From contig CAIPTO010000083.1 in assembly GCA_903867985.1 (NCBI GenBank), positions 20,664 to 84,663 on the forward strand: 64,000 nucleotides of DNA, written 5' to 3'. Origin of the DNA: an uncultured Elusimicrobia bacterium. GTDB taxonomy: Bacteria; Elusimicrobiota; Elusimicrobia; Elusimicrobiales; UBA9959. Within the stretch, counting starts at the first letter, position 1. Every line of letters begins with the position of its first letter. The notes below the pieces were generated by a model. The model was not told where the DNA came from and did no database searches. It saw only the letters and a program-made list of their open reading frames with translations. Of the stretch, positions 188 to 38,700 are shown piece by piece. The translations under genes were made by a program, and so were the position numbers.

Positions 188-3100
188 ATGTATTTGAAAG
201 GTATTGAGATTTACGGTTTTAAGTCATTCGCGAACAAGGTTAAACTGCCGCTTAAACCCGGCATAACCTGCATCGTGGGTCCCAACGGCTGCGGCAAGTC
301 CAACGTGGTAGACTCGCTGAAATGGTGTATAGGCGAGATGTCCTGGAAGTCGCTTCGCATGCCGTCCATGATGGACGTCATATTTGCCGGCACCACCAAG
401 CGTTCCCAGCTAAATATGGCCGAAGTGGCCATGACCTTCGATAATGAATCCCGCAAGCTTCCTTTGGATTTCAGCGAAGTAACGGTAACCCGCAAGATCT
501 ACCGTTCCGAAGAATCCGAATATTTTATAAATAAGGTTCAGTGCCGCCTTAAAGATATCCGCGAGATGTTCCTGGACACAGGTGTCGGCACAGACGGCTA
601 CGCAATTATAGACCAGGGCGAAGTGGAATATGTCCTGTCCGCCAGCGCCGAGGAGCGCAGGGAGCTTTTTGAAGAGGCCGCCGGTGTTTCAAAATACAAG
701 GCCAAGCGCGAAGAAGCTTTGAGAAAACTGGAAAAAGTGGACGCGGATCTGGCGCGCCTGGCCGATTCCATGACCCTGATAGACGAGCAGATAAAAAAAC
801 TGGACGCCGAAGCCAAGCGCGCCCGCACCCAGCAGAAGTACAAGGAAGAACTCACGGCGGCTGAGGTCTCCATGCTGGTTAAGGAAATTTCCGGGTTCAA
901 CACTGAGGTGGAAGCTGAAAATGCAGCTCTTTTACCGGTGCAGAAGGATATCGAAGAAACCGCGACAGCCATAACCGCGCTTGAAGGCGAGCTCGCGGCC
1001 ATGAACCTTACGCTCACCCAGAGGCAGGAAGAAGAGCGGGTACTGAATGAAGCCATAGCGTCCGTAAAATTTGAAAAAGTCCGCCTTGAAGGCACCATCG
1101 TCAGCAACGGCAGTATGGCTGAAGTTGTAGCCAAACAGACAAAAACCGTTGAGGAGTCCGGGCTGCGCAATGATACGGCTATCGCGGCTGCCGCTCCCCG
1201 CATAGAAGAAACGCGGGCGGCCCTGGCAAACGGCGAAGCGGGACTGGGCGCGCTTAAAAATGATTATGAGACCGGCCTGGCGGAGCTTGCCAAGATAGAA
1301 GAGGAAATGAACTCCGTGGACGCCTCCACTAACGCCATAGAGAAAGACATAACAGCCGCTTACCAGACCGAAGTTGAAGTCTCCAGCGATATCGCCTCTA
1401 CAGGTTCCAGCATCGGCCACTACAAAGAAAATATTCTGAGTTTAAAAAAAGATCTGGAGGGCTTAAACGTCCGCCGCGCCGAAATTGCGGAGAAGCTTTC
1501 CGGTATTCGCGCCCGCTCGGCCGAGAATGAAGCGGCCCTGAACGCCGAAAAAGCCCTTCTCGCTGAAGCCGAAGCCGCCAGGAGAGCCTCCTCCGGCCGC
1601 CTGGACGCCATAATCCTCCGCCTGAACGAGTTGAACGCCGAAAAAACCGGCGCCCGCTCGCGCCTGGAAGCCATTCTGGCCCAGGGAGAAAAAGATTCTT
1701 ATTGGGTCGGGATCAACAATGTGCTCAATTCAGGCGTCTCCGGTATCCGGGGCACGCTTCGCCATCTCCTGACCGTCAAGAAAGAAGACAAGCTGGCAGT
1801 GGAAGAGGCGCTGGGCCGTTTCATGGACGCCGTCGTATGCGATAATTCCGAGCGCGCCCAGGAAGCAATAGATTATCTGAAACATCTGGGCAAGGGCCGC
1901 TGCCGTTTCCTCATCCTGGACAAGGTCAGTTCCGTTGGCGAACCCTCCGCCTGGGCTATCCCCAATGCGGTTAAGATCCGCGAGAAGATTTCAACCTCCG
2001 CCGAATACGACGCCGCGCTAAACCATCTTCTGAGCGGCATCTACTCTTCCGGCGGTTCCGTGATGGGCTCCTTCTGGGTGTCGGGCGGGGTTGAGGCGGT
2101 TACCTCAAACGAACCTTACTGGGAAGAGGAGGGCGACCTTAAGGACAAGATACGGGCTTACGAAGAAGAGGAGACCAAACTTTCCGCCGAAAAGGCAGAA
2201 GTCGCGGCTAAACTGGCTGAAGTCTCAGCCAGGGCCGAAGCTCTGGATATAAAGATAAACGATATCAATATGAACCTGCACCGCACGCAGGTGGAGACCG
2301 AGAACGCCGAGGGCGAAGCCGGGATCAACGCGCAGAATATTGAATTAATCTGCGGTGAAACCGCCAAAGCTGAAAGTGTCCTGGCTGACGCCGAAAGGCG
2401 CCTCACGGACTTAAACGCGCGGCTTGAGGACGCCAGACGGATATCCGAGAGTAAAAGGGCGGACATGGCCGCCCTGGCCGGCAAAAAGGATTCCCTGCAC
2501 TCGGCTTACTCCGGAGCCAAGCAAGATATCGGCGGCAAGAAAGCTAATCTGGAAAATCACCAGAAGAATCTGGAACTTATGAAGGAAGAGGCGGTCCGTC
2601 TGGAAAGTCATGTCGCCAGCCTGCGGGCCGAGAGGGAACACTCCGCCATCCGCGTGAAAGAACTGGCGGAACAAGCCGCCCAGCTTGTCATTGAGACCGG
2701 CGAGGCCCGCAACCGGCTTATGGAAGTTATGAGCGAGCTGGCGGAAAAAGAGATCATGGAGAAACAGCTGTCCGGTGAGACTAACGCGCTGCGCAACGAT
2801 TACGGCCGCCTGAACATAAACCTGAGCGACTCCAGGGAGCTGAGCGCGGAGAGCGAAAAAAAACGCTACGGCATAGAGCTAAGGATAAATACTTTAAAGA
2901 CTCGCAGCGAAGACCTGACCAAGAGGCTCAACGAGGAATGGAACCTGGTCCTGGAAGACGCCAGGGAAAAATTCGGCGCGGTTGAAGTGGACGCCGAACG
3001 GGTGAAATTCCTGCGTAAGCGCCTGGAGAATATGGGCGCGGTAAATATGACCGCCCCCGAGGAATACGACGCCCTGATCAACCGCTTCAATTTTATGAAT

Positions 3101-3679
3101 TCGCAGGTTGAGGACCTGAACCGCGCAAAGGCGGATCTGCGCTCCGCCATCGCCAAGATCAACGAGACTACCCGCGAGAACTTTAAGCTCACTTTTGACA
3201 AGGTACAGGGGCATTTTAAACAGATATACGGGCTTCTGTTCAACGGCGGAGAGGCGAACCTGATCCTGACCCAGCCGGAGAATATCCTTGAGACCGGGGT
3301 GGAAATACTGGCGCACCCCCCGGGCAAGAAACTTGTGAGCATTTCCCAGCTTTCCGGAGGAGAAAAAGCCCTCACTGCCCTGGCGCTGCTGTTCAGTTTC
3401 TTCTGCGTAAACCCTTCACCCTTCTGCGTGATGGACGAAGCCGACGCTCCCCTGGACGAAGCCAACGTGGAACGCTTTGTGCGCCTGCTGCGCGAATTTT
3501 CCGGCACAACGCAGTTTATTGTTATCACTCACAACAAACGCACCATGGAAGCCGCGGACGTGCTTTATGGCGTTACCATGGAAGAGCTCGGCGTGTCCAA
3601 GCTTATCTCGGTGGACCTCAAGAAAGCGTCGGCGATGACCGAGGGCGGGGGGAAAGTGAAGGCCCAGGTCGGAGCGTGA
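188..3679 (+). CDS. smc: Chromosome segregation ATPase SMC
   Basis: 1163 aa. Walker A GPNGCGKSN, long coiled-coil middle with hinge, signature LSGGEKALTALALLF, Walker B FCVMDEADAPLD. AAGGA RBS upstream of the ATG. Confidence 0.95.
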   Translation: MYLKGIEIYGFKSFANKVKLPLKPGITCIVGPNGCGKSNVVDSLKWCIGEMSWKSLRMPSMMDVIFAGTTKRSQLNMAEVAMTFDNESRKLPLDFSEVTVTRKIYRSEESEYFINKVQCRLKDIREMFLDTGVGTDGYAIIDQGEVEYVLSASAEERRELFEEAAGVSKYKAKREEALRKLEKVDADLARLADSMTLIDEQIKKLDAEAKRARTQQKYKEELTAAEVSMLVKEISGFNTEVEAENAALLPVQKDIEETATAITALEGELAAMNLTLTQRQEEERVLNEAIASVKFEKVRLEGTIVSNGSMAEVVAKQTKTVEESGLRNDTAIAAAAPRIEETRAALANGEAGLGALKNDYETGLAELAKIEEEMNSVDASTNAIEKDITAAYQTEVEVSSDIASTGSSIGHYKENILSLKKDLEGLNVRRAEIAEKLSGIRARSAENEAALNAEKALLAEAEAARRASSGRLDAIILRLNELNAEKTGARSRLEAILAQGEKDSYWVGINNVLNSGVSGIRGTLRHLLTVKKEDKLAVEEALGRFMDAVVCDNSERAQEAIDYLKHLGKGRCRFLILDKVSSVGEPSAWAIPNAVKIREKISTSAEYDAALNHLLSGIYSSGGSVMGSFWVSGGVEAVTSNEPYWEEEGDLKDKIRAYEEEETKLSAEKAEVAAKLAEVSARAEALDIKINDINMNLHRTQVETENAEGEAGINAQNIELICGETAKAESVLADAERRLTDLNARLEDARRISESKRADMAALAGKKDSLHSAYSGAKQDIGGKKANLENHQKNLELMKEEAVRLESHVASLRAEREHSAIRVKELAEQAAQLVIETGEARNRLMEVMSELAEKEIMEKQLSGETNALRNDYGRLNINLSDSRELSAESEKKRYGIELRINTLKTRSEDLTKRLNEEWNLVLEDAREKFGAVEVDAERVKFLRKRLENMGAVNMTAPEEYDALINRFNFMNSQVEDLNRAKADLRSAIAKINETTRENFKLTFDKVQGHFKQIYGLLFNGGEANLILTQPENILETGVEILAHPPGKKLVSISQLSGGEKALTALALLFSFFCVNPSPFCVMDEADAPLDEANVERFVRLLREFSGTTQFIVITHNKRTMEAADVLYGVTMEELGVSKLISVDLKKASAMTEGGGKVKAQVGA

Positions 3680-3801
3680 GCAGCGCTCTAGTACGACAGC
3701 GGGACAGCGCGGCAGTTTGAGATCCGACAGGGTATGTCGGGAATACTTTGTTTAAATGTCGTACTTGTTTGATGTAGTACTGCCGCTCTATCCAATAATT
3801 T

Positions 3802-4536
3802 ATGCTCTACGGGGTTTTTTCTGATGTCCACGCCAACTTTGAAGCCCTGAAAGCGGTGCTGGCTTTTTTCCGGAAAAATACGGTTTCGCGTTTTATCTGC
3901 TGCGGGGACCTGGTAGGCTACGGCCCACAGCCCGGAGAGTGTGTGCGTGAAGTTATGGGGTTGCCGGGCCTCGATATCGTCCTTGGGAACCACGACGCCG
4001 CGCTGACAGGGAAAATGGAGTTGCGCTGGTTCAATAAAAACGCGTTGACAGCTATAGCGTTCGCCAAAAAAGAATTATCCAAAATAGAACTGGTTTATCT
4101 GGCCGCCCTGCCCGAAACCGTAAAGACCGAAGATTTTACTCTTGTCCACGGCACGCCCAGAAAACCTCTCACTGAATATCTCCTGAGCGAAGATCAGTTT
4201 CTGGAAAATCTGGCCTATTGGGATAGATCACCCTGCTTTATGGGCCATAGCCATACGCCGATCTATTTCCGTCAGAGCGGCGGGCTTCCGCCGGAAACCG
4301 GTTTCCTGCGGCCCAAGGCCAAGATTGTTTTGGACGGCGCGCGCTATATGCTCAATCCCGGGTCCGTGGGGCAGCCACGCGACGGCAATCATCGCGCCTC
4401 CTGCGGGTTGTATAATTCAAAAAAAAAGACTTTTGAAATATTCCGCGTAGATTATGATTTTTCCAAAACGCAGGAGCTTATGCGGGCCGCCGGCTTTCCC
4501 GGAGTGCTTATAGAGCGCCTGGCTTTCGGATTATGA
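3802..4536 (+). CDS. Metallophosphoesterase (calcineurin-like, YfcE/MJ0936-type)
   Basis: Motifs SDVHAN, CCGDLVGYG, LGNHD, GHSH typical of the calcineurin-like phosphoesterase fold. Confidence 0.75.
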   Translation: MLYGVFSDVHANFEALKAVLAFFRKNTVSRFICCGDLVGYGPQPGECVREVMGLPGLDIVLGNHDAALTGKMELRWFNKNALTAIAFAKKELSKIELVYLAALPETVKTEDFTLVHGTPRKPLTEYLLSEDQFLENLAYWDRSPCFMGHSHTPIYFRQSGGLPPETGFLRPKAKIVLDGARYMLNPGSVGQPRDGNHRASCGLYNSKKKTFEIFRVDYDFSKTQELMRAAGFPGVLIERLAFGL

Positions 4537-4605
4537 GTTGTAAAGCGGAAACAGTTTGAGTTTTTAATTTTATAGCAGTTCGACGCGATAAGGATAAAAA
4601 AATTA

Positions 4606-4989
4606 ATGGAAATGAACATGCTGATAGTAGATGATGACAGGAATTTCATCGACACTCTTTCGGACGGTCTTAAACTTAAGAACGTGGAGGCCCAGATAAC
4701 CGTGGTCAACTCCGCCCGTGAGGCCATCGATGTGCTGGCTAAGACGATCCCGTCCATCATTATCCTGGATGTGCAGTTGCCTGACATGCACGGCGTGGAG
4801 TTTATGCGCACTATAAAACAAACGGAGCGGCTTAAGAACATCCCCGTTATTTTTATCTCCGCCAAATATACAGAACCGGCTGATCGTTCGGAGGCTATGC
4901 TCGCGGGCGGGGGGTCGTTCTTCTCCAAACCGGTAGATATTGACGAGCTCTGGGCCGAAGTCAAGTATCTGCTTGACAAGAAAAATTAA
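4606..4989 (+). CDS. Stand-alone response regulator receiver domain (CheY-like)
   Basis: 127 aa. N-terminal LIVDDD acidic pocket, phospho-acceptor context IILDVQLPDMHG, conserved Lys in FISAKY. No output domain and no adjacent histidine kinase. Confidence 0.8.
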   Translation: MEMNMLIVDDDRNFIDTLSDGLKLKNVEAQITVVNSAREAIDVLAKTIPSIIILDVQLPDMHGVEFMRTIKQTERLKNIPVIFISAKYTEPADRSEAMLAGGGSFFSKPVDIDELWAEVKYLLDKKN

Positions 4990-5079
4990 GTCTTATAACA
5001 TAGGTGAGGCAGGAGTAAGAATCAAGTTTTAAAACCCTGTTTCCTCCCACTTACAGTTTTTAAAAAATAGGAGCACGAT

Positions 5080-5406
5080 ATGTCCAATGAAATACAGCTG
5101 ACAGACGCCAGTTTTGACCAGGAAGTTATCAAAAGCGCCATCCCGGCGCTGGTGGATTTTTGGGCGCCATGGTGCGGCCCCTGCAAAATGATCGCGTCCA
5201 CCATTGAAGAGCTGGCCAAGGAATACGAGGGCAAAGTTAAGGTTTGTAAATTGAACACCGACGAGAATCCTGATTCATCCGCCGCTTACCGCATTTCCGC
5301 CATCCCTACCATATTGTTGTTCAAGGGCGGAAAACTGGTGCAGGAACTTGTGGGTCTGCAGCCAAAAGATGAGCTCAAGCGTCATCTGGACGAGCTGATA
5401 AAATAG
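5080..5406 (+). CDS. trxA: Thioredoxin
   Basis: 108 aa with active site WAPWCGPCK. AGGAG RBS upstream. Confidence 0.95.
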   Translation: MSNEIQLTDASFDQEVIKSAIPALVDFWAPWCGPCKMIASTIEELAKEYEGKVKVCKLNTDENPDSSAAYRISAIPTILLFKGGKLVQELVGLQPKDELKRHLDELIK

Positions 5407-5513
5407 GGTACAGGGGTCAGGGTTGAGGGTAAAGAAATAAAGAAGTCCTCATCCTAACTCCTGACAGCATGCCGTATACCCTTTTTCACCCTCAACCCTA
5501 ACCCCTTTCCCCC
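5406..5513. repeat. Inverted heptamer word arrays (GGGTnnA x4, then nnnCCC-type words); G4-motif pair
   Basis: gggtaca ggggtca gggttga gggtaaa at 5406-5433. Complementary array of about four words (three clean heptamers tcaaccc taacccc tttcccc plus tttcaccc) within 5478-5513. agggttgagggt pairs with accctcaaccct. Confidence 0.8.
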
Positions 5514-5519
5514 TAGCGT

Positions 5520-8084
5520 ATGTCCAAAAAAACAATCTTTATCATAGACGCGCACGCGTTCCTGCATCGCAGCTATCACGCCTTGCCTAAATTGACAACC
5601 TCCAGAGGGGAGCCGGTCGGAGCTTTGTACGGTTTCCTGCGCCTGCTTCTTAAAATAAAAAAAGAGCACAAGCCGTACTACGCGGCCGTTTGTTTTGACG
5701 CGCCCGGGAGTACTTTCCGCGATGTCATTTATGCCGAGTATAAAGCCAATCGGAAAGAGATCGAACCCGATTTGCTGGCGCAGCTTAAAGCCGCCGCGGA
5801 ATTGCCTAAAGCGGTGGGGCTCAAAGCCGTGGTCTTGCCCGGTTATGAGGCTGACGATATTATCGCTACTCTGGCGCGCAGGTTCGCGGCCGCTGGTTAT
5901 GAAGCCGTCATTGTGACCGGCGATAAGGATGCCGCACAATTGGTTGGGGACGAAATAAAACTCTGGGACGGCAGCGCCGCCTCATTTTCCGGAGAGGCGG
6001 AAGTTATTGCTAAGTTCGGGGTTAAGCCTTCCCAGATAGCGGATTATCTGGCCCTTACCGGTGACGCTTCCGATAATGTGCCGGGTGTGGCCGGTATAGG
6101 CCCGAAGGGCGCGGCCAAATTGCTGGGGGCGTACGGCGCGCTGGAAAACATACTGAGCGCAGCCTCAGACCCGCGGCAGGCGGTCAAGGATAAATTATTG
6201 GCCAAGGTGGCAGGGCATAAAGATGAAGCCGCGTTGTCCAAGCGGCTTGTTACGCTTGAAGGCAAGGCTCCAGTAGAGGGTGATATAGATGAATTTGAGG
6301 TTAAAGCTCCTGACGCCGCTCTGGCCGCCGAACTCGCCCGGCGTTACGAGTTCAGGGATCTGGCCGCCGTAACTCCGCAGCAGACTCTGTTTGACGCGCC
6401 GCTGACGGCCGAGATGCCGCTTTCTGAAGTGCTGGCGCGCGGAAAGAGTGACGGTTTTATCTGCCTGGCCCATTCCCTTGGCGCGGTTTGCGCCGGCTCG
6501 GACAAGGGGGCGGCGTACTTCGGGCAAGGCGAGCTTAAAAGTGAAGATAAGGCCGGCCTTTCCGTCCTTGTGCAGGACAGCAGGGTTTTCAAGGTCGCGG
6601 CCGGTCTCAAGAGCGTTCTCCATCTCATTAATTTTGAGCCGACCCGCGAAATGAATAATTTTTTCGAACTTGAGATCGCTCATTCGCTTTTGAGCGCGCG
6701 CAAGAGCGATATCTCAAAACTGGTTTTTGAGAAGACAGGCGCTCTGACGCGGGAGGAAGGCTCCAGGGAGGAGCTCCTCACCGCGGCCGGAGCGATGGCG
6801 CGCATCTACCCAGACATCAAGAAGGAGCTGGCTTCGGCCGGGATGGAAAAGGTTTACTCCGAACTGGAGCTGCCGCTGATACCGGTGATCTACGCGATGG
6901 AAGCGGCGGGCTTCAGGGTGGATGTCGGGCTGCTCAGGGAACTATCAGAAGATTTTTCGGCCAAATTAGCGGCTATCGAGGCTGAGGCCGAGCGGCTTAC
7001 CGGCCATAAAATAAATCTAAATTCTCCCAAGCAGCTGGGCTGGCTTTTGTACGAGAAACTGAATATACAGCTGGATGACGCGCAGAAAAAGATGTTTAAG
7101 ACCAAGGATGGATACTCGACCGCGGAGGAGGTCCTCACTTTTCTCAAACCGGCCCATCCCGTCATAGAAAAGCTTCTGGAATTCCGCGAGATCTCAAAGC
7201 TTAAGTCCTCTTTCGTTGACAATCTCCTGGACGTTGCCGACGGGAATGGGCGGGTGCACAGTACATTTGAGCAGGCGGGCACGGCCACCGGCAGATTTTC
7301 AAGTTCCAAACCCAATCTGCAGAATATCCCGGTACGCTCCGCTTACGGACAGCTGGTGCGCCGCGCTTTCCGCGCCCGGAACGGAAGCTCGCTTATGAGC
7401 GCCGACTATTCGCAGATCGATCTGCGGGTGCTTGCCCATGTCTCCGGAGATAAAAATCTGCTGGCTGCTTTCCGCGCCAACGAGGATATACATTTGCGCA
7501 CGGCCAGCGAGGTTTTTCACGCCGCCCCCGAGCTGGTTACAAAGGAGATGCGGCGTTCAGCCAAGGCCATAAACTTCGGCATAGTCTACGGCCAGACCGC
7601 CCAGGGGTTGGCCCGGGAATTGGGCATACCAAGGGCGGAGGCGGCTAAATATATAAAGCATTATTTCGAGGTTTATTCGGGAGTTAAGTCCTGGATAGAC
7701 GGCACAATAGCCGCCGCAAAGATTAACGGTTGTGTTACCACTTTCACCGGCCGGCGGCGGGCCGTGCCGGATATCAACGGGACCAACGGCAATATGCGCG
7801 CTTTTGCCGAGCGCGTGGCGATGAATACGCCCATACAAGGCGGCTCAGCCGACATAATAAAGAAAGCCATGATCGATATCCACGCGAAGATAAAGGGCTC
7901 CGATAAGATAATCCTGGTGCTGCAGGTGCACGACGAGCTGGTCTTCGAGGTTAAAGCGGGTTATGAAACAGAGGCCGCGCTCATTATAAAGGACGGCATG
8001 GAGAACGCCTTCAAGCTTGAAGTGCCGCTGCGCGCCGATATAAAAGCCGGCCCCAACTGGCAGGACATGAAACCTGTTCTTTAG
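5520..8084 (+). CDS. polA: DNA polymerase I
   Basis: 854 aa. N-terminal 5'-nuclease domain (FIIDAHAFLHRSYHA, GDASDNVPGVAGIGPKGA). Pol motifs DYSQIDLRVLAH, RRSAKAINFGIVYG, QVHDELVFE. The middle domain lacks recognisable DxE / NxxxD / YxxxD 3'-5' exonuclease carboxylates (Taq-like). Confidence 0.95.
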   Translation: MSKKTIFIIDAHAFLHRSYHALPKLTTSRGEPVGALYGFLRLLLKIKKEHKPYYAAVCFDAPGSTFRDVIYAEYKANRKEIEPDLLAQLKAAAELPKAVGLKAVVLPGYEADDIIATLARRFAAAGYEAVIVTGDKDAAQLVGDEIKLWDGSAASFSGEAEVIAKFGVKPSQIADYLALTGDASDNVPGVAGIGPKGAAKLLGAYGALENILSAASDPRQAVKDKLLAKVAGHKDEAALSKRLVTLEGKAPVEGDIDEFEVKAPDAALAAELARRYEFRDLAAVTPQQTLFDAPLTAEMPLSEVLARGKSDGFICLAHSLGAVCAGSDKGAAYFGQGELKSEDKAGLSVLVQDSRVFKVAAGLKSVLHLINFEPTREMNNFFELEIAHSLLSARKSDISKLVFEKTGALTREEGSREELLTAAGAMARIYPDIKKELASAGMEKVYSELELPLIPVIYAMEAAGFRVDVGLLRELSEDFSAKLAAIEAEAERLTGHKINLNSPKQLGWLLYEKLNIQLDDAQKKMFKTKDGYSTAEEVLTFLKPAHPVIEKLLEFREISKLKSSFVDNLLDVADGNGRVHSTFEQAGTATGRFSSSKPNLQNIPVRSAYGQLVRRAFRARNGSSLMSADYSQIDLRVLAHVSGDKNLLAAFRANEDIHLRTASEVFHAAPELVTKEMRRSAKAINFGIVYGQTAQGLARELGIPRAEAAKYIKHYFEVYSGVKSWIDGTIAAAKINGCVTTFTGRRRAVPDINGTNGNMRAFAERVAMNTPIQGGSADIIKKAMIDIHAKIKGSDKIILVLQVHDELVFEVKAGYETEAALIIKDGMENAFKLEVPLRADIKAGPNWQDMKPVL

Positions 8085-8099
8085 ATGGAAGGGTTCGCG

Positions 8100-8263
8100 G
8101 GTTCTGTCGGAGGCCCGGAACGCGAAAACGGTGTCGGCCACACCGTGGCCGCGCCTCCGGAGCGGGCCCAGTGTCGCCGGGCTCCACCCAGTCGCCGCGC
8201 TATGCAAGCGGCTCTTTCCGGTACGGTTTCGCTTATCCGGATCCCCCGCCACCCGCTCCAATT
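8100..8263. other. GC-rich multi-helix intergenic element (possible structured RNA; function unknown)
   Basis: Nested complementary segments. cggaggc 8108-8114 pairs with gcctccg 8153-8159. acggtgt 8128-8134 pairs with acaccgt 8140-8146; a mutually exclusive alternative is ggccac 8136-8141 with gtggcc 8145-8150. ggagcggg 8159-8166 pairs with cccgctcc 8252-8259. Confidence 0.3.
8217..8263 (+). repeat. 47 bp perfect direct repeat, copy A (left flank of decarboxylase gene)
   Basis: tccggtacggtttcgcttatccggatcccccgccacccgctccaatt, identical to 10069-10115. Confidence 0.95.
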
Positions 8264-8394
8264 AAGGTCTAAAACTCTTAATGGAGCGGAAGGACAGATA
8301 TTATTTCTTTAGTGCTCCAGTAAACGGGGGTACGTCACTCAGATTAGATTTTGTATCACAACTGTAAAGTTTAAAATAAACTAGTGAGGTTTTT

Positions 8395-10062
8395 ATGACA
8401 GAGCCACAATCCACTACTATCTCCCGCTATCTGCTTTACCGGCTGAAGGAAGCAGGCATCAATCATCTTTTCGGCGTGCCGGGCGACTATGTCCTCGATT
8501 TTCTGGACGAAGTTGTCGCCAGCCCGGTCCGGTGGGTGGGCACCTGCAACGAGCTTAACGCCGGCTATGCCGCTGACGGGTACGCCCGGATGAAGGGCGC
8601 GGGCGCGGCCGTGGTTACCTACGGGGTCGGCGGCCTGAGCATTCTTAACGCCGTGGCCGGCGCGTACGCCGAGCGGGTACCCCTTATTATCATCAGCGGC
8701 GCCCCGGCGAGCCGGCGTCGCGAGGCGGGGGCCCTCGTCCATCACCTTATAACCGATTATTATCTCCAGTTGGAGGTCTTCAAGAAAGTCACTACCGACG
8801 CGGCTATTCTCCTCAGGCCGGAAACGGCCCCGGACGATATCGATCGGATAATCCGCAACTGCATTATCCGTAAGCTGCCCGTTTACATCGAACTGCCGGC
8901 TGATCTCGCCCGCGCCTCCTGCCGCGCCCCCGGACCGCTCTCATTTGCCCCGGCGGAGCGCTCCGACGAGGACAGCCTTAAGGATTGTGTCGCGGAAGCG
9001 GCCGAAATGATAAATCAGGCTGCCTCACCCTTAGTGCTGGCGGGCGTAGAACTCTCGCGTTTCGGCCTGGGGCCCGACGCTCTCCGGCTGGTGGAGGCGG
9101 TAGAACTGCCCTTTGCTACCATGCTCAGCAGCAAGAGCGTTCTCCCGGAACTGCATCCCCAGTTCGTTGGCCTCTACCAGGGAGCGTGGAGCCGGGAAAG
9201 CGTCCGCCGGCAGGTGGAATCCTCCGACTGCCTGTTGTCGCTGGGGGTCTGGATGACCGACCTTGACACCGGCTTGTTCAGCTTAAAGATAGACAGCCGC
9301 CGGATGATCGCCGCCGCGAACGACCGCGTCCGTCTCAGGAATCACTACTACGATAATGTCCGGCTCGGCGATTTCGTCCGGGCCCTGATACCGGCCATAC
9401 GGCCGCGGTCCTACCTGGCTTCCCACCCGGCCGCGACTAACCTTGTCCGCAAGCCCTTCACGGCCGACCCGGACCGGCCCCTCACCGCCCCTCGGGCCTA
9501 CGAGCGCCTGAACTGTTTCCTCAACGACAAGATGGTCCTGCTGGCCGAACCGGGCGACGCTTTCTGCGCGGCGCCGGAGTTCCAGATAGAGGAGGCGCGC
9601 AACTTTATAGTGCAGTGCTATTACTGTTCGATCGGTTATTGCACTCCCGCCGCGCTGGGGGTGGGCCTTGCGGAGCCCGGGAAGAGGCCCGTGGTGCTTA
9701 CCGGAGACGGCGCTTTCCAGATGACGGCTCAGGAGCTTTCCACTTTGATCCGGCTGAAATGCCCAGCCATCGTGCTGGTGGTCAACAATGACGGCTACCT
9801 CATCGAGCGCGTTCTTCACGAGGACGGGCCTTACAACGATATCCAGCGGTGGGACTACGCGAAGCTTCCGGCGGCTTTTGCCGGCGACGGTCAGGCTATC
9901 GGCATCCGGGTCACCACGGAGGGCGAGCTGGAGGGCGCACTTGCCGTGGCTTCAAAGGAAGCAGACAAGCTGGTTCTCATCGACCTCTGTCTGACCGGCC
10001 GCGAATGCTCCCAGGGGCTGGCGCGTCTGGGCGAATCTTTCCGCTCTACGCAGCGCAAATAG
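8395..10062 (+). CDS. Thiamine-diphosphate-dependent alpha-keto-acid decarboxylase (IpdC / PDC family)
   Basis: 555 aa. N-terminal FGVPGDYVLDFLDE and NELNAGYAADGYAR, catalytic His pair in ALVHHLI, TPP-binding GDGAFQMTAQEL...VVNNDGY. The layout closely resembles indolepyruvate / phenylpyruvate decarboxylases. Visibly more GC-rich than its neighbours. Confidence 0.8.
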   Translation: MTEPQSTTISRYLLYRLKEAGINHLFGVPGDYVLDFLDEVVASPVRWVGTCNELNAGYAADGYARMKGAGAAVVTYGVGGLSILNAVAGAYAERVPLIIISGAPASRRREAGALVHHLITDYYLQLEVFKKVTTDAAILLRPETAPDDIDRIIRNCIIRKLPVYIELPADLARASCRAPGPLSFAPAERSDEDSLKDCVAEAAEMINQAASPLVLAGVELSRFGLGPDALRLVEAVELPFATMLSSKSVLPELHPQFVGLYQGAWSRESVRRQVESSDCLLSLGVWMTDLDTGLFSLKIDSRRMIAAANDRVRLRNHYYDNVRLGDFVRALIPAIRPRSYLASHPAATNLVRKPFTADPDRPLTAPRAYERLNCFLNDKMVLLAEPGDAFCAAPEFQIEEARNFIVQCYYCSIGYCTPAALGVGLAEPGKRPVVLTGDGAFQMTAQELSTLIRLKCPAIVLVVNNDGYLIERVLHEDGPYNDIQRWDYAKLPAAFAGDGQAIGIRVTTEGELEGALAVASKEADKLVLIDLCLTGRECSQGLARLGESFRSTQRK

Positions 10063-10068
10063 CCGAGC

Positions 10069-10115
10069 TCCGGTACGGTTTCGCTTATCCGGATCCCCCG
10101 CCACCCGCTCCAATT
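10069..10115 (+). repeat. 47 bp perfect direct repeat, copy B (right flank of decarboxylase gene)
   Basis: Identical to 8217-8263. Begins 7 nt after the decarboxylase stop codon. Confidence 0.95.
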
Positions 10116-10148
10116 TATATGTGAAGTTAACACACCGGATATAAAGGT

Positions 10149-10973
10149 ATGAACTTTTCACTGCGACCACCATCATTGAACGACTTGCCGCCGGCTACCC
10201 GGGGACTGGTGGCGGCTTCTTTCTGCGGGTGGATACTGGAGATGGCGTTCAGGGGCCCGCTGAATTATTATTTCGGTCTAGTGCCGCTCAAAGTGGCCGG
10301 CTCCGGCTGGCTCTGGCAGCCGATTACCTATATCTTTATTCACGGCGGGTTCTGGCATTTCCTCTTCAACGCTTTCATGCTCTGGATGATGGGGGCAATT
10401 ATTGAGCCGGTCATGGGTTCCAGGAAATTCTTTGTTTATTTCCTTTTCTGCGGCGCGGCGGCGGGGGTGATCACCGTGGCGGTCAGCCCCGGTTCCGCGA
10501 CAGCCGTCATAGGCGCTTCCGGAGCTGTTTACGGACTGCTATACGCCTTTGCCGCGCTTTACCCCGATCAGACTGTATATATGTATTTCCTTTTCCCTAT
10601 GAGCGCGCGCCAATTAGTGATGTTCCTTGCGGGGCTTTCCCTGGTGCTCAGCTTTACCACGCCTAATTCAAGCGTGGCCAACTTTACGCATTTGAGCGGG
10701 CTTGCGGCGGGCTGGCTGTATTTTAAAACCACAAGGCGGTTTGAGAGCAGGGCGGCAGCGCGGCAGCGGGACAGTGCGGCAGGAACAGGGCCAGGATTTT
10801 GGGCCAGGATTTTTGGCGGCTTGTCGCGGGAGACTGGCGACGGTGAAATGGAAACTTCCAGGAAAGTGGACGCCATTCTTGAAAAGATTTCCAGGAAAGG
10901 CGAAGCCGCCCTGACAGCCGGTGAACTCCGCGCACTGGATGAATATGCCCGAAATAAGGGGGGGAGGGCGTAG
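10149..10973 (+). CDS. Rhomboid family intramembrane serine protease
   Basis: Multi-TM protein with HGGFWHFLFNAFMLW, catalytic GASGAVYG and a downstream His in FTHLSGLAAG. Carries a soluble C-terminal tail of about 70 aa. Confidence 0.85.
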   Translation: MNFSLRPPSLNDLPPATRGLVAASFCGWILEMAFRGPLNYYFGLVPLKVAGSGWLWQPITYIFIHGGFWHFLFNAFMLWMMGAIIEPVMGSRKFFVYFLFCGAAAGVITVAVSPGSATAVIGASGAVYGLLYAFAALYPDQTVYMYFLFPMSARQLVMFLAGLSLVLSFTTPNSSVANFTHLSGLAAGWLYFKTTRRFESRAAARQRDSAAGTGPGFWARIFGGLSRETGDGEMETSRKVDAILEKISRKGEAALTAGELRALDEYARNKGGRA

Positions 10974-32682: not shown

Positions 32683-32778
32683 ACAGAGGGCTGGGAACTG
32701 ATAATTAAGTTCGGTCAGACCTTAAAAACATACGGCTTGCAGTCTGCGGCTTATGCCGGGTATTTTTTAGGAGAAATT

Positions 32779-35700
32779 ATGTTTAACATTAGAAAAAATA
32801 TTTTAACTCTGACGACCGCGGCCGGTCTCTGGGCCGGATTGATCGGAAGCGCCGGAGCCGTTGCCACCCTTCCCCCGAGCGGGCTTAGCGTGGTAAGCGG
32901 CGATTATAACGGTTCCGTGAATCTATCCTGGAACGCGCCGGAAGCGCTTGCGGGAGGTAAATTTTACATTCAGTACAGCACTACGAACGGTCCATGGATC
33001 TCTACCGGTTCGGCGCAGATCGTCATAACCACTGCCACTATCGGGGCTCAGAGTATGCGCGTAAGCGGTCTGGAGTATGGCCGTAATGGCTCCGACCCCG
33101 CTTTCATATACTACTTTCATGTCTGGATAGAAAACACCGGCATCGTTTCCGCCCCTGTCACATCGGTTTCCGCTATTCCTTTGACCCCGGCCGCGCCTTC
33201 CACAGGCGTTTTGGCGCTGGCTGCCGGCTCTGTGCTATCCATAAACTCCCAGGGAGGCGGCTACGGATCCAAGCTTGCCGTAGACTCGTCCGGGAATTAT
33301 TACGCGCTTGCTTCCATGATGTTTTCATCATCAACCACGGGCACCGGTGGGACGAACTCATCGTCAGCCATAGCCCTGATAAAATTTTTACCGTCCGGCG
33401 CCGTGTCGTGGTACCGCGCGTACAACAGCACGATGAGTCTCTCCGGTTCGGATTGGACCAATGATCAGGCTACCGCCATGGCTCTCGGTTCGGACGGGAA
33501 CCTGATCATAGCCGGTAGGATAGATAAAGGCGCTAATGTCATGTTAAGGAAGTACACCGCCAACGGAGATATCTTGTGGACGAGGCTAATTGCGGCGGAT
33601 ATGTCCAGCAATAGCCGCATCAACGCTATTTCCATAAATTCCTCTACCGAGATATATACCGCAGGCGAGAAGTATTCCGGCACCGGGAATCTGTGGCTGG
33701 CAAAATTTAACAAGGATGGCGTCCAGCAGGGAGCGAACGCTTTTTATTCCAACGCGCAGTCCGGTTCATACGCCGGCAACGGGATAGCGTTGTATGGGGG
33801 GTATATTTATGTGGTCGGCACCAGGAATGTCCGCAACAACGACGACATCTTTGTGGAGAAATATGGAGATACCTGGCCCACGGTCCCGACACAGATCGGA
33901 GCGGTTACCGCAGGCGGTCCCAATTACGACCAGGGAAAGGGGATAAAGATAGACGCTTCGGGTAGCATTTTTGTGACAGGCGCGTATTATAGTTCCGCCA
34001 CGTATAATAATGCCTGTTGGACCGCTAAGTACGATTCCTCGCTTGTTCAGCAATGGCAGGACCTTTATTCCTACAGCGGTAATATGGCCTCCGGCGCGGC
34101 GCTGGAACTGGATCTAACCGGCAACGCTTATATTACCGGCAGTGAATATCGTAGCGACATATACCAGGGTGGCAATCTTTTGCTGCTGAAATATTCACCT
34201 GGCGGCGCGCGCCTGATGGTTCGCAGCGTGGACTACAATAAGGGTTATGAAGAAGGTTACGACGTTAAAGTGTCCAGCCTGGGCGTGATTTACGCCGTCG
34301 GAAGTTTCCCGAACGTGAACATGGGAACGAGTGTGAGCAGCCTGGGGATATATAAACTGGATATGACTTCGTCATCCTCCGGGCTTCTGGCCGACAAGGG
34401 CCCTTTCACCGGTTCCGTGAACCTGAGCTGGCTCTACCCGGCCGCCATGCCTGCCGGTTCCAAGTATTATGTTCAGTACAGCACTTTTTACAGTGTAAAC
34501 TGGTCCACGGCCTCCGCGGCAGAGTTCCCCATTAATGCCGCCGTCTCCGCTTTGTCGGCGCAAACCCACACGGTAGGCGGCCTGCAGGCCGCCCGCGGCG
34601 CCCTGAACAATATCAGCTCGCCTGTATATGCGTTTAGGGTCTGGTATTATAACGGAACAACTCTTACCGCCCTGCCCAACCTTGCTACTGCCTACACTAA
34701 CGTCCCCACCGCTCCGACAGAGAGCGTGATCACCAGTGCGGACGGTAATTTGCTCAAGCAGCTGGACGGCACGCCCGTCATGGGCTGGACCTCCGGCCCT
34801 TCCTTGGCCCGTGATAATGCCGGCAATGCCTATATGCTTTTTAGCGCAAATTTAGGCGTGGCCAGAGCTGATAACGCGGGTATCGCTCTCAGGAAATACA
34901 ATCCCTACGGTACACTTCTCTGGACCCGCTTCTATCACGGCGAACTTTCCGCCACCTATAACGCTTCCGCCATAGCCGCGGACGCGGACGGCAATATTAT
35001 AATAGCCGGCGAGGAGAACGCGCCCTCGCTGGAACAGGGTGACAATATCTGGGTCAGTAAGCTGGACTCCGACGGCAACCAGATCTGGACCAGAATTTAT
35101 GACGGCGCCGGTCATGGCGACGACTCCGTCAAAGCCGTGGCAACAGACGTTTCCGGAAATATTTATGTTACCGGCAAAGTTGAGGGTGCTTCCGGATCAG
35201 ATCTCGTTGTGATAAAATACACCGCGGCCGGCAGTCCTACGGCGCAAACCTATGATGGCGGCTCGACCGATGAAGGCACGGCTATAGACGCGGGAGCAGA
35301 CGGTTTCGTTTATGTGACCGGTAAATCCATGATCAACGCGTCTGGAGCGGATCCGGCCCATTATAGAATGATTTTCATTAAGTATAATTCTTCCCTTGCG
35401 TTTTCCTCAACCTGGACCAATAATCCTTTCTTTTACGAGTATCGCGCTGACAGGGATAATATTCCCTACGCCGTAAAGGTTTCTACGTGGGGCGACATCT
35501 ATGCCGCCGGTCAGGTATATGTTATCGGCTCCGATCTGCTGGATGCCTGGGCTGCCAGGATATCTCCGGCCGGTGTTATTACTTCCACTTCCGCTTCCGG
35601 CGCCGCCAGCGAATTCAGAGCGCTCACAATTTCCACCGCGACCGGAGAGGTCTTTGCCGCCGGCCGCCAGATATATCCCGTAGAAACGTTATGGTTCCAG

Positions 35701-38700
35701 AAACTAAACCCCTCTGACGTGAGTTACATGTGGAGCAAGAAGTTCCCTAATATCGGTCTGACCGGGCCTATATCCCCCGTGAATATCGTTATAGACAGCC
35801 GGGGGGACTTCAGCCTGAGCGTGATTATTTCCACCACGGTCAGCAGCCAGCCCGGTAGTTTTAAATTCAGTTCGCCGGCGGCGGCTATGTCCGCTGGTGT
35901 CACCGCGATCACTGGAACCGTGCCCGGCGGCGCGGAGCTATCCTGGGTCACCGGCGTCGCTCTGCCGGCCGGAACCTCTTATTATGTGCAGGCCAGCACC
36001 TGGAATGGCGGCTGGGATTTCGCCCTCGCGAAGCAGTCTTATCCGTCCCCCTACCAATATCAGCCACAGGCGTATACCGAGGGTTCGCTTGTCCGCATCA
36101 AAGCAGGTGATCTCACCGCCGGCCGCGACGCGCGGGGCAATACAACAGCGCCTTACTATTTCAATGTCTGGTACTATGCGGGCGGCGTCAGTACCACTAC
36201 GGTAACCGGTAATCCCTCAGCTCTGCCGAATATCCCAGTGATTTCAGAGACTTCCTACCCATACCCGCTCGGGCAGCTTTACCTGACCACGGGTCTCAAC
36301 ACCACCAGTCCGGTCAAAATGGTCCGTGCCGTTTCGGGAGATATCTATCTTGCCATCCAGACCTATTCCTCACAGGGCGACGCCTCATCTTCCGTCATCC
36401 TCAAAAAGTATAACCTGAGCGGCGTTTTGCAGTGGGTGCGCTATTATTTCTCGGGCAACGGCAGCGGCCTGCGTGCCTTGGCCAGCGACGCTTCCGGTAA
36501 TGTTTACATTTCCGGTTCCGGAAGGGACGCTGCCGGGACCAATCCATATATCGCAAAGTATTCCGACGCCGGAGAATTGCTCTGGTCCCGGACCATTCCT
36601 TCACGCGGAGCTTATGAGGATTTCAGCGGCTTAACGGCCGCGTCCGACGGAAGTATCTATCTGACCGGGCAGTACAACGCGGTAAGTTCAGGCGCGAATA
36701 TCTCCAGTGGCGCCGCTCTTCTGGCCAAGTATTCTCAGGCCGGAGTCCTGCTGGCTTCCTCAACGTATAGCGGGAGTTACAACTCTGTCCGGGCCGTTGG
36801 GATAACCTATAACGCGGTTGACGGCAATCTTTATGTGTCAGGCCAGGCGGGCATAAACACCTCCACAGCCTGCTTCTGGGTAGGAAAGTTTGACACCGGC
36901 CTGACATTCGTCGCAGATAAAAAATACTGTCCTTCCGCGCCCTATGGTTATTCATCCGGCAACACTATCAAAGTTGACGCTGCCGGCAGCATCTATGCCG
37001 CCGGCAGCGTTTATGACCAGTACCAGTATGACAATATGTTTATTGTGAAACTCACCCCGGCTCTTTCTGAGGTCTGGTCCAGCACCTACAATTCACCGGC
37101 CAATTCCTACGAATCAATACAGGGCCTTGCGGTGGACACGAGCAGCGGTGCGTATGTCAGCGGCTACGAGAACCGCAGCGACCTTAATCAGGGGTATAAC
37201 CTTTTCTTCAGGAAATACAATACCGGAACCGGCGACATAGTCTGGACCAATACTTTTAACAGTTCCGGGAACTCCTACGAGTATGCCGATGACATAGCCG
37301 TGGACTCATCCGGTTTCGTCTATGTGCCGGGCAGCTATAGCTATGGTGTTAATTACCAGTACGCCGCCGGCTATTTCAAATATAAACAGTTCAGCACTTC
37401 CGCCACCAATCCGATTATCACCGCATCCGTTAAATATAACGGGAGCAGCACGCCGCTGAAGGACGTGAATGTGATTTTGTTAGCGTTTAATCAGACGGGG
37501 GGGATGGACCCAGCCGGCATCCGGGTCAGCGCCACGGACGCCAACGGCAGATTCTCGGCCGCCGTGCCGGGCGGTTTAAAGTATTTTATCGGCCTTTCCA
37601 CACCCGGCTATGTGCCTACCGTAAAGGACCAATTAATGGATCCCAGCGGCAATTTTTACCTTACGCTCAACAGTGATACCACGAGAGAATTCTCTCTTTA
37701 TCCACGTGCGGCCTCTGACCCGATAAGCACACTGACCGTCAATGTTTCCGAGGGCCTGACGCCCGGTGACTTTCTGATGGGCGAGGTTTCAGTCAACAGG
37801 ACCGGAGAAAAAGTAGCCTACGGTGTATTGGCGGCCAGCGCCCCGGCCGGCCAGCTCCAGATTTTCAACGTGCCGTCCGCTCCGGCCGGAACCTACGGCG
37901 TGGCTTTGAGCGTACCCGGGAAGAATAAGTTCCTGAATTTTTTCCTGGACACAGCCTTTCCGGCCGATTCGGTTTACACGGTCAACATGTCCAGCGCTAT
38001 TTCTTCCAGCGGCGGTTTTGACACCTCCGGTTCCACCGTTCCTCCCTCTTTTCAGGGCGTAGTGCGCAGCAGTCCGACCATGGTTCCGTTGGAGGGCGCA
38101 AGGATAGAATTATTCATAAATCAGTGTTCCGGGGCCAACACCTGTTCCAAAGCGATTAGCTATGAGAATCTTACCGACGTAAACGGCCAATTCAGTTTCT
38201 ATAATCTCCCTTCCACTTCCACGCCGTATAATGTGAATGTTAAGAAACAGGGCTCGCGCAGCTGGTTTGACATGATCATGATCTCAAGCATGCCGGCGGG
38301 CGCCAATACAGCCGCTGCCGTGGCGCAGTACCGCGAGTACGCACTTTTCCCGGCCACTTATACTTTAACCGGCCTGATCAAATATAACGGTATACCCGTA
38401 CCCAACGCCCGAGTCATGGTCTACGGCGACTGGGCCACCGGCTCCGGGGACGATTCCTATTCCGGTTATTGGGACGGGGCCATGCAGAGCGACGCCCAGG
38501 TTCGCACCGGGGCGGACGGTTTATTTACCGCTGAAGGTCTGCCGGACGGCCGCGTGCGTGTGAATATGGACTTTATGGGCAACTGGCGAGACCTGAATAA
38601 CGGCCCGGATGGTACCAACGGCAACTCTGACGACTTGAAGATAATAATTTCTTCCGCCGGGGCCACCGGTCCCAGCGAGCCGGGAGGCAATCCCTGCCTG

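Follow-up and report, generated by a model that had tools for sequence, protein, structure and literature searches.

Chromosomal hotspots of horizontal gene transfer (HGT), which lie between conserved core genes and contain no recognisable mobile-element genes, are a general concept in bacterial genomics. This paper describes such a locus in a 64-kb stretch of DNA from an uncultured member of the Elusimicrobiota (the window, that is, the whole of this stretch), namely the spacer between polA and a rhomboid protease gene, where a single decarboxylase gene is enclosed by two perfect copies of a 47-nt sequence (the 47-mer), together with a structured intergenic repeat, called E here, of which the 47-mer is the 3' arm. 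Like other hotspots of HGT, the locus has core flanks that are constant across a clade, cargo that differs between close relatives and no integrase, but unlike hotspots in general its spacer also holds a structured repeat, and its insertions are accompanied by local duplications of 47-108 nt. As a whole it represents a known kind of integrase-free hotspot with displacement-type duplications, plus an uncatalogued repeat family of the Elusimicrobiota. Related loci are referred to below by L numbers.

Structured intergenic repeats of bacteria include the REP/BIME, ERIC, Correia and RUP-type miniature elements. E is similar to these in its size (150-180 nt), in its intergenic position, in its occurrence in either orientation and in being an imperfect palindrome with compensatory changes; in addition, it can sit inside operons (cydA-cydB) and can serve as a recombination substrate. 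However, E has no sequence relationship with any of them, its predicted fold is a three-way junction where theirs is a plain hairpin, its copies show no target duplication and no partner transposase is known. A literature search on Elusimicrobia with integrons or miniature inverted-repeat elements gave nothing relevant.

Integron cassettes with their attC sites, and the clusters of attC sites lacking integron-integrases (CALINs), are comparable in that cargo of one or two genes lies between folded repeats whose structure is kept more than their sequence, and in that a toxin-antitoxin unit is among the cargo (L043), but E is without core motifs or IntI, the joints are variable, many copies are free of cargo and the decarboxylase occurs elsewhere without E. 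Integrase-borne islands with attachment (att) sites at the 3' ends of tRNA or tmRNA genes likewise show direct repeats of tens of bases around foreign DNA; unlike these, the present locus has no integrase, and its repeat is not a tRNA, a tmRNA or an Rfam family and differs between lineages which carry the same gene. For rhs loci and for the effector-immunity arrays of the type VI secretion system (T6SS) in Vibrio cholerae, homology-facilitated illegitimate recombination with displacement of the 3' end has been proposed (PMC5361080). The locus described here resembles them in having a conserved upstream gene as anchor, the cargo downstream of it and a remnant of the resident sequence behind the cargo, and furthermore in what may be microhomology at the joint, in the lack of a dedicated recombinase and in successive events that would lead to arrays. 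It differs from them in that the anchor is the housekeeping gene polA together with an intergenic repeat, where those systems have a polymorphic toxin gene, and in that the cargo is metabolic or of the toxin-antitoxin type; moreover, the mechanism proposed here for these uncultured bacteria is read from the junctions alone.

Alternative Arrangements around the Decarboxylase Gene

The 47-mer, TCCGGTACGGTTTCGCTTATCCGGATCCCCCGCCACCCGCTCCAATT, is present in the window in two exact copies on the + strand (Table 1), and no third match was obtained in the window at up to three mismatches, none being expected from 100 shuffles. Both borders of the 47-mer are where the identity between the copies ends, and the sequence enclosed by the copies comprises an AT-rich upstream stretch of 131 nt, one open reading frame (ORF) of 555 amino acids and then 6 nt. 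To this extent an earlier, sequence-only reading of the locus was accurate, since it had described perfect 47-bp direct repeats enclosing exactly one gene with an AT-rich upstream region. The same layout, including both 47-mers, recurs in contigs of three other assemblies (L001, L002 and L073), and therefore it is no assembly artefact.

The sister genomes L003 and L011, whose rhomboid proteins are about 90% identical to that of the window, carry the decarboxylase at the same place with a different repeat around it. Their order is polA, a linker of 38-44 nt, the decarboxylase, a duplicate of the last 53 nt of polA, E and the rhomboid gene. They have a single 47-mer, and it is the 3' end of polA that flanks the gene as a repeat (91% identity in L003). 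The shared stretch amounts to about 1725 nt, the cargo unit of the window being 92.4-92.6% identical to L003 4010-5740 and L011 4038-5762, and the L003 segment to the right of the gene, consisting of the polA remnant and E, is homologous to the window segment to the left of the gene. Copy 2 of the 47-mer lies directly against the rhomboid leader, at the spot held by the complete E in L003 and L011, and this copy together with the leader is 97.8% identical to both.

The sequence-only reading had further taken the 47-mers for attL/attR-like products of a recent, site-specific insertion, and neither half of this is supported. Sliding identity over 12 kb between the window and L003/L011 gave 88-97% (mean about 92.5%) for the flanking genes and 89-95% (mean about 92.4%) for the decarboxylase; gene and flanks have diverged to the same extent, and therefore the arrival of the gene at the locus was probably not recent, which fits a gene that would already have been at the locus before the lineages of the window and of L003/L011 split. 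Site-specific integration is contradicted by the sister genomes, with their one 47-mer and other bracketing repeat, an observation of the kind that the sequence-only reading had itself named as its first refutation, and by the 47-mer being the arm of a dispersed element. Perfect identity of the two copies cannot date the event either, because the 47-mer is equally identical in L003 and L011, whereas the 5' 131 nt of the complete E of the window (E1) and of the L003 E show 22 differences (83% identical). The identity of the two 47-mers may reflect a constraint on the arm, or gene conversion. Scans of genomes should allow for this, since one foreign gene between perfect direct repeats can mimic an att duplication. 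The conservation of arm and leader hints at a possible role in expressing the downstream cluster; a sigma-70 consensus scan gave no site on the + strand in the 47-mer and the rhomboid leader.

The polA-Rhomboid Spacer as a Recombination Hotspot

The synteny of polA, rhomboid and coaE was found in 34 metagenomic and 5 genomic relatives, and in the more distant ones the genes abut. The contents of the spacer in closer relatives are given in Table 1, together with the features of the window and the E copies at unrelated sites. The ORFs of the spacer were listed in every case, and candidates from L004, L005 and L043 were compared with Pfam or NCBIfam; this yielded a BrnT/BrnA toxin-antitoxin pair and a DinD-like gene besides ORFs of unknown function, and no recombinase was found in any spacer examined by the ORF listing and these partial scans. 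The 108-nt direct repeat of L004 is made up of the polA stop with the sequence downstream of it and of the 5' arm of a shortened E, and in the array of L043 E is repeated together with an extension of about 165 nt (3578-3886 versus 4602-4919, 80% identity). Therefore, constant core genes enclose quite different sequences in this clade, and the polA-rhomboid spacer is a recombination hotspot, now documented in a poorly known uncultured phylum with conspecific strains that carry mosaic cargo alleles.

As a separate observation, the same BrnT/BrnA pair stands in L004 (4636-5232) and in L043 (3965-4561) with 85.8% nucleotide identity and different flanks, the homology extending from about 14 nt upstream of the brnT start (L043) to 2 nt past the brnA stop.

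The window was also searched for the genes and target sites that integrase-borne islands use. No integrase or transposase family was detected by a Pfam scan of the window ORFs of at least 200 amino acids (5 of which were without any Pfam match) or in the gene table of the first 21 kb or so, and the absence of such a gene beside the decarboxylase, claimed earlier, stands for these ORFs. ARAGORN gave no tRNA or tmRNA in the window, and Rfam gave nothing relevant, either at the gathering threshold on the window and four loci or at an expect value of up to 10 on 7950-10300. Within the species, no site was found that has polA, one 47-mer and the rhomboid gene without the decarboxylase.

Table 1. 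Features of the window, E copies at unrelated sites and contents of the polA-rhomboid spacer in relatives
Feature	Sequence	Position	Strand	Description
polA (DNA polymerase I)	window	5520..8084	+	Pfam DNA_pol_A and 5'-3' exonuclease domains; left border of the hotspot
Full element E	window	8088..8263	+	Covariance-model match of 145.8 bits over the whole model; starts 3 nt past the polA stop
47-mer copy 1, 3' arm of E	window	8217..8263	+	3' strands of the three outer helices
E extension and linker	window	8264..8343	+	Same extension after E1 and E2 of L043; absent from L003 and L011
Cargo unit	window	8344..10068	+	About 50 nt of promoter-like upstream sequence, decarboxylase and 6 nt (CCGAGC); stretch common to L003/L011
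Decarboxylase, PDC/KdcA/IpdC family	window	8395..10062	+	Pfam TPP_enzyme N, M and C
47-mer copy 2, 5'-truncated E with the 3' arm alone	window	10069..10115	+	Partial, weak covariance-model match of 32.5 bits
Leader	window	10116..10148	+	Presumed promoter region of the rhomboid-coaE-rho cluster
Rhomboid protease gene	window	10149..10973	+	Pfam Rhomboid and synteny; right border of the hotspot; coaE and rho follow
E copy	L065			After groEL and its terminator; same genome as L005
E copy	L066			Abuts the stop codon of a 331-aa gene and faces a cold-shock gene
E copy	L068-L071	~5989-6155		Fills the 195-nt cydA-cydB gap from the cydA stop codon, inside the operon
Spacer	L006			116 bp, no E
Spacer	L027			Inverted E alone, filling 166 nt
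Spacer	L005			DinD-like gene and degenerate inverted E
Spacer	L017			Several small ORFs of unknown function
Spacer	L004			249-aa gene of unknown function and BrnT/BrnA inside the 108-nt direct repeat
Spacer	L043			Array: E1, BrnT/BrnA, E2, ORF176, inverted E3
Spacer	window, L003, L011			Decarboxylase

Mosaic Alleles and Junctions

Two further loci carry the decarboxylase as mosaic alleles. Over 4.6 kb, namely window positions 5001 to about 9624, L072 shows 0 mismatches to the window, after which 39 of 445 positions differ up to the end of the gene; past the stop codon it has a polA 3' remnant, about 30 nt of the E 5' end and other cargo, and no second 47-mer. It is a homologous recombinant with its breakpoint in the gene at about 9625, which joins the left flank of the window to the right flank of another lineage. 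L073 has both 47-mers and departs from the window only inside the gene, where a patch of about 500 nt (about 8644-9240) is 77-92% identical. Therefore, the left and right flanks of the cargo are exchangeable independently, via the homology of the cargo or of the core genes. The mosaic alleles imply what would be a frequent homologous exchange with divergent alleles of the decarboxylase, and homologous recombination is apparent at this locus as a footprint in metagenome-assembled genomes.

L072 was also considered as an ancestral intermediate, with E on the left and the polA remnant on the right of the gene, and was rejected in this role because the mismatch map shows a recombinant. In its polA 3' remnant (5677-5707) a 31-nt hairpin, TAGAATAGGGGACAGCCTCCCGTCCCCTATG, is inserted and flanked by an 8-bp duplication, CCGCGCCG; this looks like a tiny palindromic insertion with target duplication.

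The native 3' flank of the gene is seen in L074, one of the loci where the decarboxylase has other neighbours, and reads TAG-CCGCGC-TGC-TCCGG-CC. With a slash marking the joint, L003, L011 and L072 read TAG-CCGCGC/CGAC..., and polA reads CT-CCGCGC-CGA, CCGCGC being common with the L074 flank. The window reads TAG-CCGAGC/TCCGGTACGG..., and the E arm begins with TCCGG, which is again common with the L074 flank. Both joints thus appear to lie at short GC-rich identities of the cargo flank and the target, as microhomology-mediated illegitimate joining predicts, and this is supportive, not conclusive. The positions of the joints differ, namely at the start of the E 3' arm in the window and 53 nt inside polA in L003, L011 and L072; further joints lie past the 5' arm of the shortened E in L004 and about 30 nt into E in L072.

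The Structured Repeat E

E is a structured intergenic repeat family with strong covariation, previously uncatalogued, and the 47-mer is its conserved 3' arm. It is about 177 nt long in the window and about 155 nt in most relatives, and RNAalifold folds it as a three-way junction of 49 pairs, in which the 47-mer supplies one strand of each outer helix (Table 1). In a MAFFT alignment of 9 copies, 89.8% of the cells are paired and 21 pairs are changed on both sides, as against 10.9 +/- 2.1 in shuffles; in a model-based alignment of 13 copies, three of them from unrelated loci, 91.6% of the cells are paired and 29 of the 49 pairs are changed on both sides, as against 14.6 +/- 2.0 in shuffles. When the partners were slid by one column, about 45% of the cells were paired in either alignment, and in the 13-copy alignment 7-8 pairs were changed on both sides at one column and 4-10 over slides of 1-3. 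Examples of the compensatory changes are GGCCAC-ACC-GTGGCC versus GCGCAC-ACC-GTGCGC versus GGGCAC-ACC-GTGCCC, and GCGAAAAC...GTTTCGC versus GCGGAAC...GTTCCGC. G-U pairs are commoner than A-C on the + strand of the window (helices 2 and 7 in the 13-copy analysis), so that the + strand is mildly favoured as the probable folding strand, with the caveat that the fold was predicted on that strand.

The ends of E are imperfect terminal inverted repeats, GGGTTCGCGGG versus CCCGCCACCC, and all copies begin with GGGTTCGCGGG... and finish with ...CACCCGCTCCA. No target-site duplication was found in the flanks of 11 copies, inspection of the alignment showed no attC cores of the form RYYYAAC or GTTRRRY, and Rfam gave no match for E at any threshold tried. 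A reading of E as a small protein gene was suggested by several open frames; it is rejected because indels shift the frame (such as the 22-nt difference between L003 and L011) and the substitutions in the helices are compensatory.

The sequence next to E is also conserved in part. CCGCTCC (8253-8259), among the last bases of E, is able to form a stem with GGAGCGG (8283-8289) that closes an AT-rich loop, and the window holds just the first 40 nt or so of the extension (8264-8300). In L043 (3727-3886, 4754-4919 and, inverted, 5640-5800) and L005 (4412-4474), a conserved extension after E includes a hairpin made of CCGCTCC, an AT-rich loop with TATAAT, and GGAGCGG; it also carries the motif CCCGCCCATATTG...TTTACCCACCC. 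The full repeat unit may therefore be about 320 nt. Positions 8293-8312 were once taken for a degenerate polA 3' remnant; this was dropped, as they are equally explained as the extension which natively follows E in L043.

Searches with nhmmer and a covariance model gave E copies on either strand in L043 (3), L015 (2), and L019, L027, L005, L003 and L011 (1 each), and in the window the covariance model matched only 8088-8264 and the partial copy 2. In the 335 kb of clade DNA covered by the covariance-model search, E was found only in polA-rhomboid spacers and once after rho (L015), although this sample is biased, because every locus in it had been chosen to contain the polA-rhomboid spacer. When a profile of translated E was compared with a protein collection, 31 small spurious ORF calls were obtained, and all five that bear a source name come from Elusimicrobia or Elusimicrobiota. 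Furthermore, the three unrelated contexts of E in Table 1 were confirmed by the covariance model at 92-123 bits. The copy between cydA and cydB starts at the cydA stop codon inside the operon, and therefore it should be co-transcribed and can be no full terminator. Consequently, E is a dispersed intergenic repeat which occurs at unrelated sites of the Elusimicrobiota besides this locus. In IMG/VR, which was searched for E as a candidate attP, two motif scans gave short chance matches and the E profile gave no true copies.

The Decarboxylase Gene

The best relatives of the gene product in PDB are pyruvate, branched-chain and indolepyruvate decarboxylases, matched over the full length with expect values of 1e-90 to 1e-105. 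Its scores in the NCBIfam models of indolepyruvate decarboxylase are under the equivalog cut-off (389 versus 946 bits for TIGR03393 and 342 versus 554.5 bits for TIGR03394). The product is predicted to be a thiamine-diphosphate dependent alpha-keto-acid decarboxylase of the PDC/KdcA/IpdC family, an assignment that is made at the family level and names no substrate. Thus the label IpdC/PDC-type given from the letters alone is right as to the family, on the evidence of the TPP_enzyme domains and the PDB relatives, and unsupported if it is understood as indolepyruvate decarboxylase proper.

Composition was calculated for the 37 window ORFs of at least 200 amino acids. The guanine + cytosine (GC) content of the decarboxylase is 0.626 and that at third codon positions (GC3) is 0.761, where the means of all 37 are 0.537 (standard deviation 0.026) and 0.623 (standard deviation 0.043), respectively; the gene ranks top in both, at z = 4.2 and 3.85 relative to the remaining 36 ORFs. 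The GC-richness first judged by eye is therefore real, and while the repeat family around the gene turned out to be dispersed, the composition of the gene does deviate.

At least three genomic contexts hold proteins at least 93% identical to the decarboxylase, and two more (L008 and L010) hold homologs of about 88-89% identity. Besides the polA-rhomboid spacer, proteins of 93-94% identity, which belong to the same 90% protein cluster, are found in one context between a 253-aa gene and a thiolase gene, and in another with Peptidase_C1 downstream and either a 296-aa ORF (P0001 contig) or a DUF5979 gene (L074) upstream; the wider family, 68-75% identical, extends across many phyla. The nucleotide homology of L008, L010 and L074 to the window is limited to the gene itself with no more than about 45 nt before it and 6 nt after it, and with L074 3946-5665 the window unit is shared from 8351 at 89% identity. 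Around the decarboxylase in these three loci there are no flanking repeats and no E. Because the gene is an outlier in composition, stands in several genomic contexts, belongs to a family across many phyla and has duplicated local flanks, it is accessory and foreign, as had been supposed, that is, a promoter-plus-gene unit gained by horizontal transfer. The decarboxylase is exchanged among Elusimicrobiota, near-identical copies being found in different contexts, some of them in assemblies with neighbouring accessions (ERZ14268xx). The occurrence of near-identical decarboxylases in such assemblies suggests a locally useful trait, which may be keto-acid fermentation.

As for the ends of the protein, the decarboxylases of the 90% cluster end in ...QRK-stop in all contexts (AAATAG; window 10058-10062), and the homologs of 88-89% identity in L008 and L010 end in ...QRKG-stop (AAGGGGTGA), the nucleotide homology to them ending at CGCAA.

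How the Cargo May Have Entered

We consider it fairly probable that cargo enters the polA-rhomboid hotspot by recombination which is anchored by homology, joined at microhomology and displaces resident sequence, and that the 47-mer is no attachment site. Incoming DNA from a relative would pair with the chromosome via conserved sequence, that is, polA, E, or the decarboxylase once it is present, polA being the likely homologous anchor, and the non-homologous end would be joined at a short GC-rich microhomology upstream of the end of the donor homology. The overlap would then become a direct repeat, with the resident copy displaced behind the cargo; a resident piece would be duplicated and displaced because the donor homology reaches past the joint. 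In the window the displaced piece would be the E arm of 47 nt, and likewise in L073 the E arm to the right of the gene. In L003 and L011 it would be the last 53 nt of polA, in L072 the polA remnant, and in L004 a segment of 108 nt from downstream of polA. On this proposal the second 47-mer would be the leftover of an E copy beside the leader of the rhomboid-coaE-rho cluster, and repeated events would build arrays like that of L043. The manner of joining and the order of the events are what we infer from the junctions.

Several points weigh against displacement at microhomology joints. No genome was found with the full intermediate that it predicts, in which a complete E would stand to the left of the gene and, to its right, the polA remnant together with another complete E, and L072, which comes nearest to it, is itself a recombinant. 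The joint CCGAGC/TCCGG has two indistinguishable origins, since it may have arisen by a deletion of about 180 nt from a junction of the L003 type or by a direct join, and matches of 5-6 nt at junctions in GC-rich DNA can be due to chance. The ends of the cargo are nearly alike in three contexts, as a discrete mobile unit also predicts. Furthermore, the 47-mers are identical while the rest of E1 and of the L003 E is 83% identical, which needs an added constraint or gene conversion, and natural competence or another route of DNA uptake has to be presupposed.

The topology would be the same if circular DNA with the decarboxylase and the E arm (or a longer segment of polA 3' end and E) had integrated by a single homologous crossover of the Campbell type, the repeats being trimmed later. 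Repeats of local sequence do flank the cargo in three lineages (47, 53 and 108 nt) and homologous recombination is clearly active at the locus, but such a donor must already have carried the cargo beside the same local sequence, which leaves the first event unexplained; moreover, 47 nt is short for an efficient RecA-dependent crossover and the data examined contain no circular form or empty site, so that we hold integration of this type to be unlikely. If E were a folded, attC-like site for an unlinked recombinase, the decarboxylase, BrnT/BrnA and ORF176 would be cassettes exchanged at E, in keeping with the three E copies of L043, between which stand two cargo units, including a toxin-antitoxin pair as in chromosomal integrons, with the fold kept by compensatory changes and with the occurrence of the same decarboxylase in several contexts. 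The junctions of L003, L011, L072 and L004, however, lie in the polA 3' end or at varied positions of E and not at a single point, the decarboxylase of L008, L010 and L074 has no E near it, solitary E copies without cargo stand after groEL, between cydA and cydB and in the polA-rhomboid spacer of L027, and neither the core motifs RYYYAAC and GTTRRRY nor an integrase nearby was found, all of which makes an attC-like role quite unlikely. We regard it as a long shot that E is the folded site of an unrecognised cassette-exchange system of the Elusimicrobiota, attC-like in function, unrelated in sequence and without a linked integrase, which moves units of promoter plus gene, such as the decarboxylase, BrnT/BrnA and ORF176, from genome to genome and from locus to locus; its footprints would then be the array of L043 and the fact that the decarboxylase unit ends almost alike in three contexts.

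The two 47-mers could also result from two independent insertions of E, in the manner of miniature inverted-repeat transposable elements (MITEs), around a decarboxylase already present, with a later loss of the 5' part of the second copy. Although E is dispersed, is found in either orientation and has imperfect terminal inverted repeats, E copies of one genome differ by about 20% (L043) and the 47-mers of the window are identical, copy 2 corresponds by position, as an ortholog, to the one E that L003/L011 have, copy 1 keeps the junction of polA stop and E that is retained as a remnant in L003/L011, and target-site duplications are not visible around E copies; two such insertions are therefore highly improbable. 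Least of all do we expect the 47-mers to be attL and attR, left by a recent site-specific integration for which a tyrosine or serine integrase was supplied in trans. Perfect 47-bp direct repeats around exactly one foreign gene are what such an event predicts, but no integrase was detected in the 64 kb, L003, L011 and L072 carry the gene here with one 47-mer and another bracketing repeat, the divergence of the gene equals that of its flanks, the 47-mer is part of a dispersed repeat family, and no tRNA, tmRNA or known RNA gene is present at the site.

Other Observations

A second long palindromic element, unrelated to E, lies just upstream of the rhomboid gene in L005 (5743-5945), L004 (5639-5836) and L017 (123-310). 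Its 31-nt inverted repeat is perfect in L005, and the element is inverted in L017. In L006, upstream of polA (3082-3222), there are three tandem units of 47 nt whose sequence is unrelated to the 47-mer of the window. The gap between the thioredoxin gene and polA in the window contains an inverted repeat (5406-5512) with 31-nt arms, which are 84% complementary and 45 nt apart. Finally, an ORF of 3111 amino acids extends over 32737-42072 of the window; its only Pfam matches are to a carboxypeptidase-regulatory-like region near residue 2500, and it probably encodes a giant surface protein.

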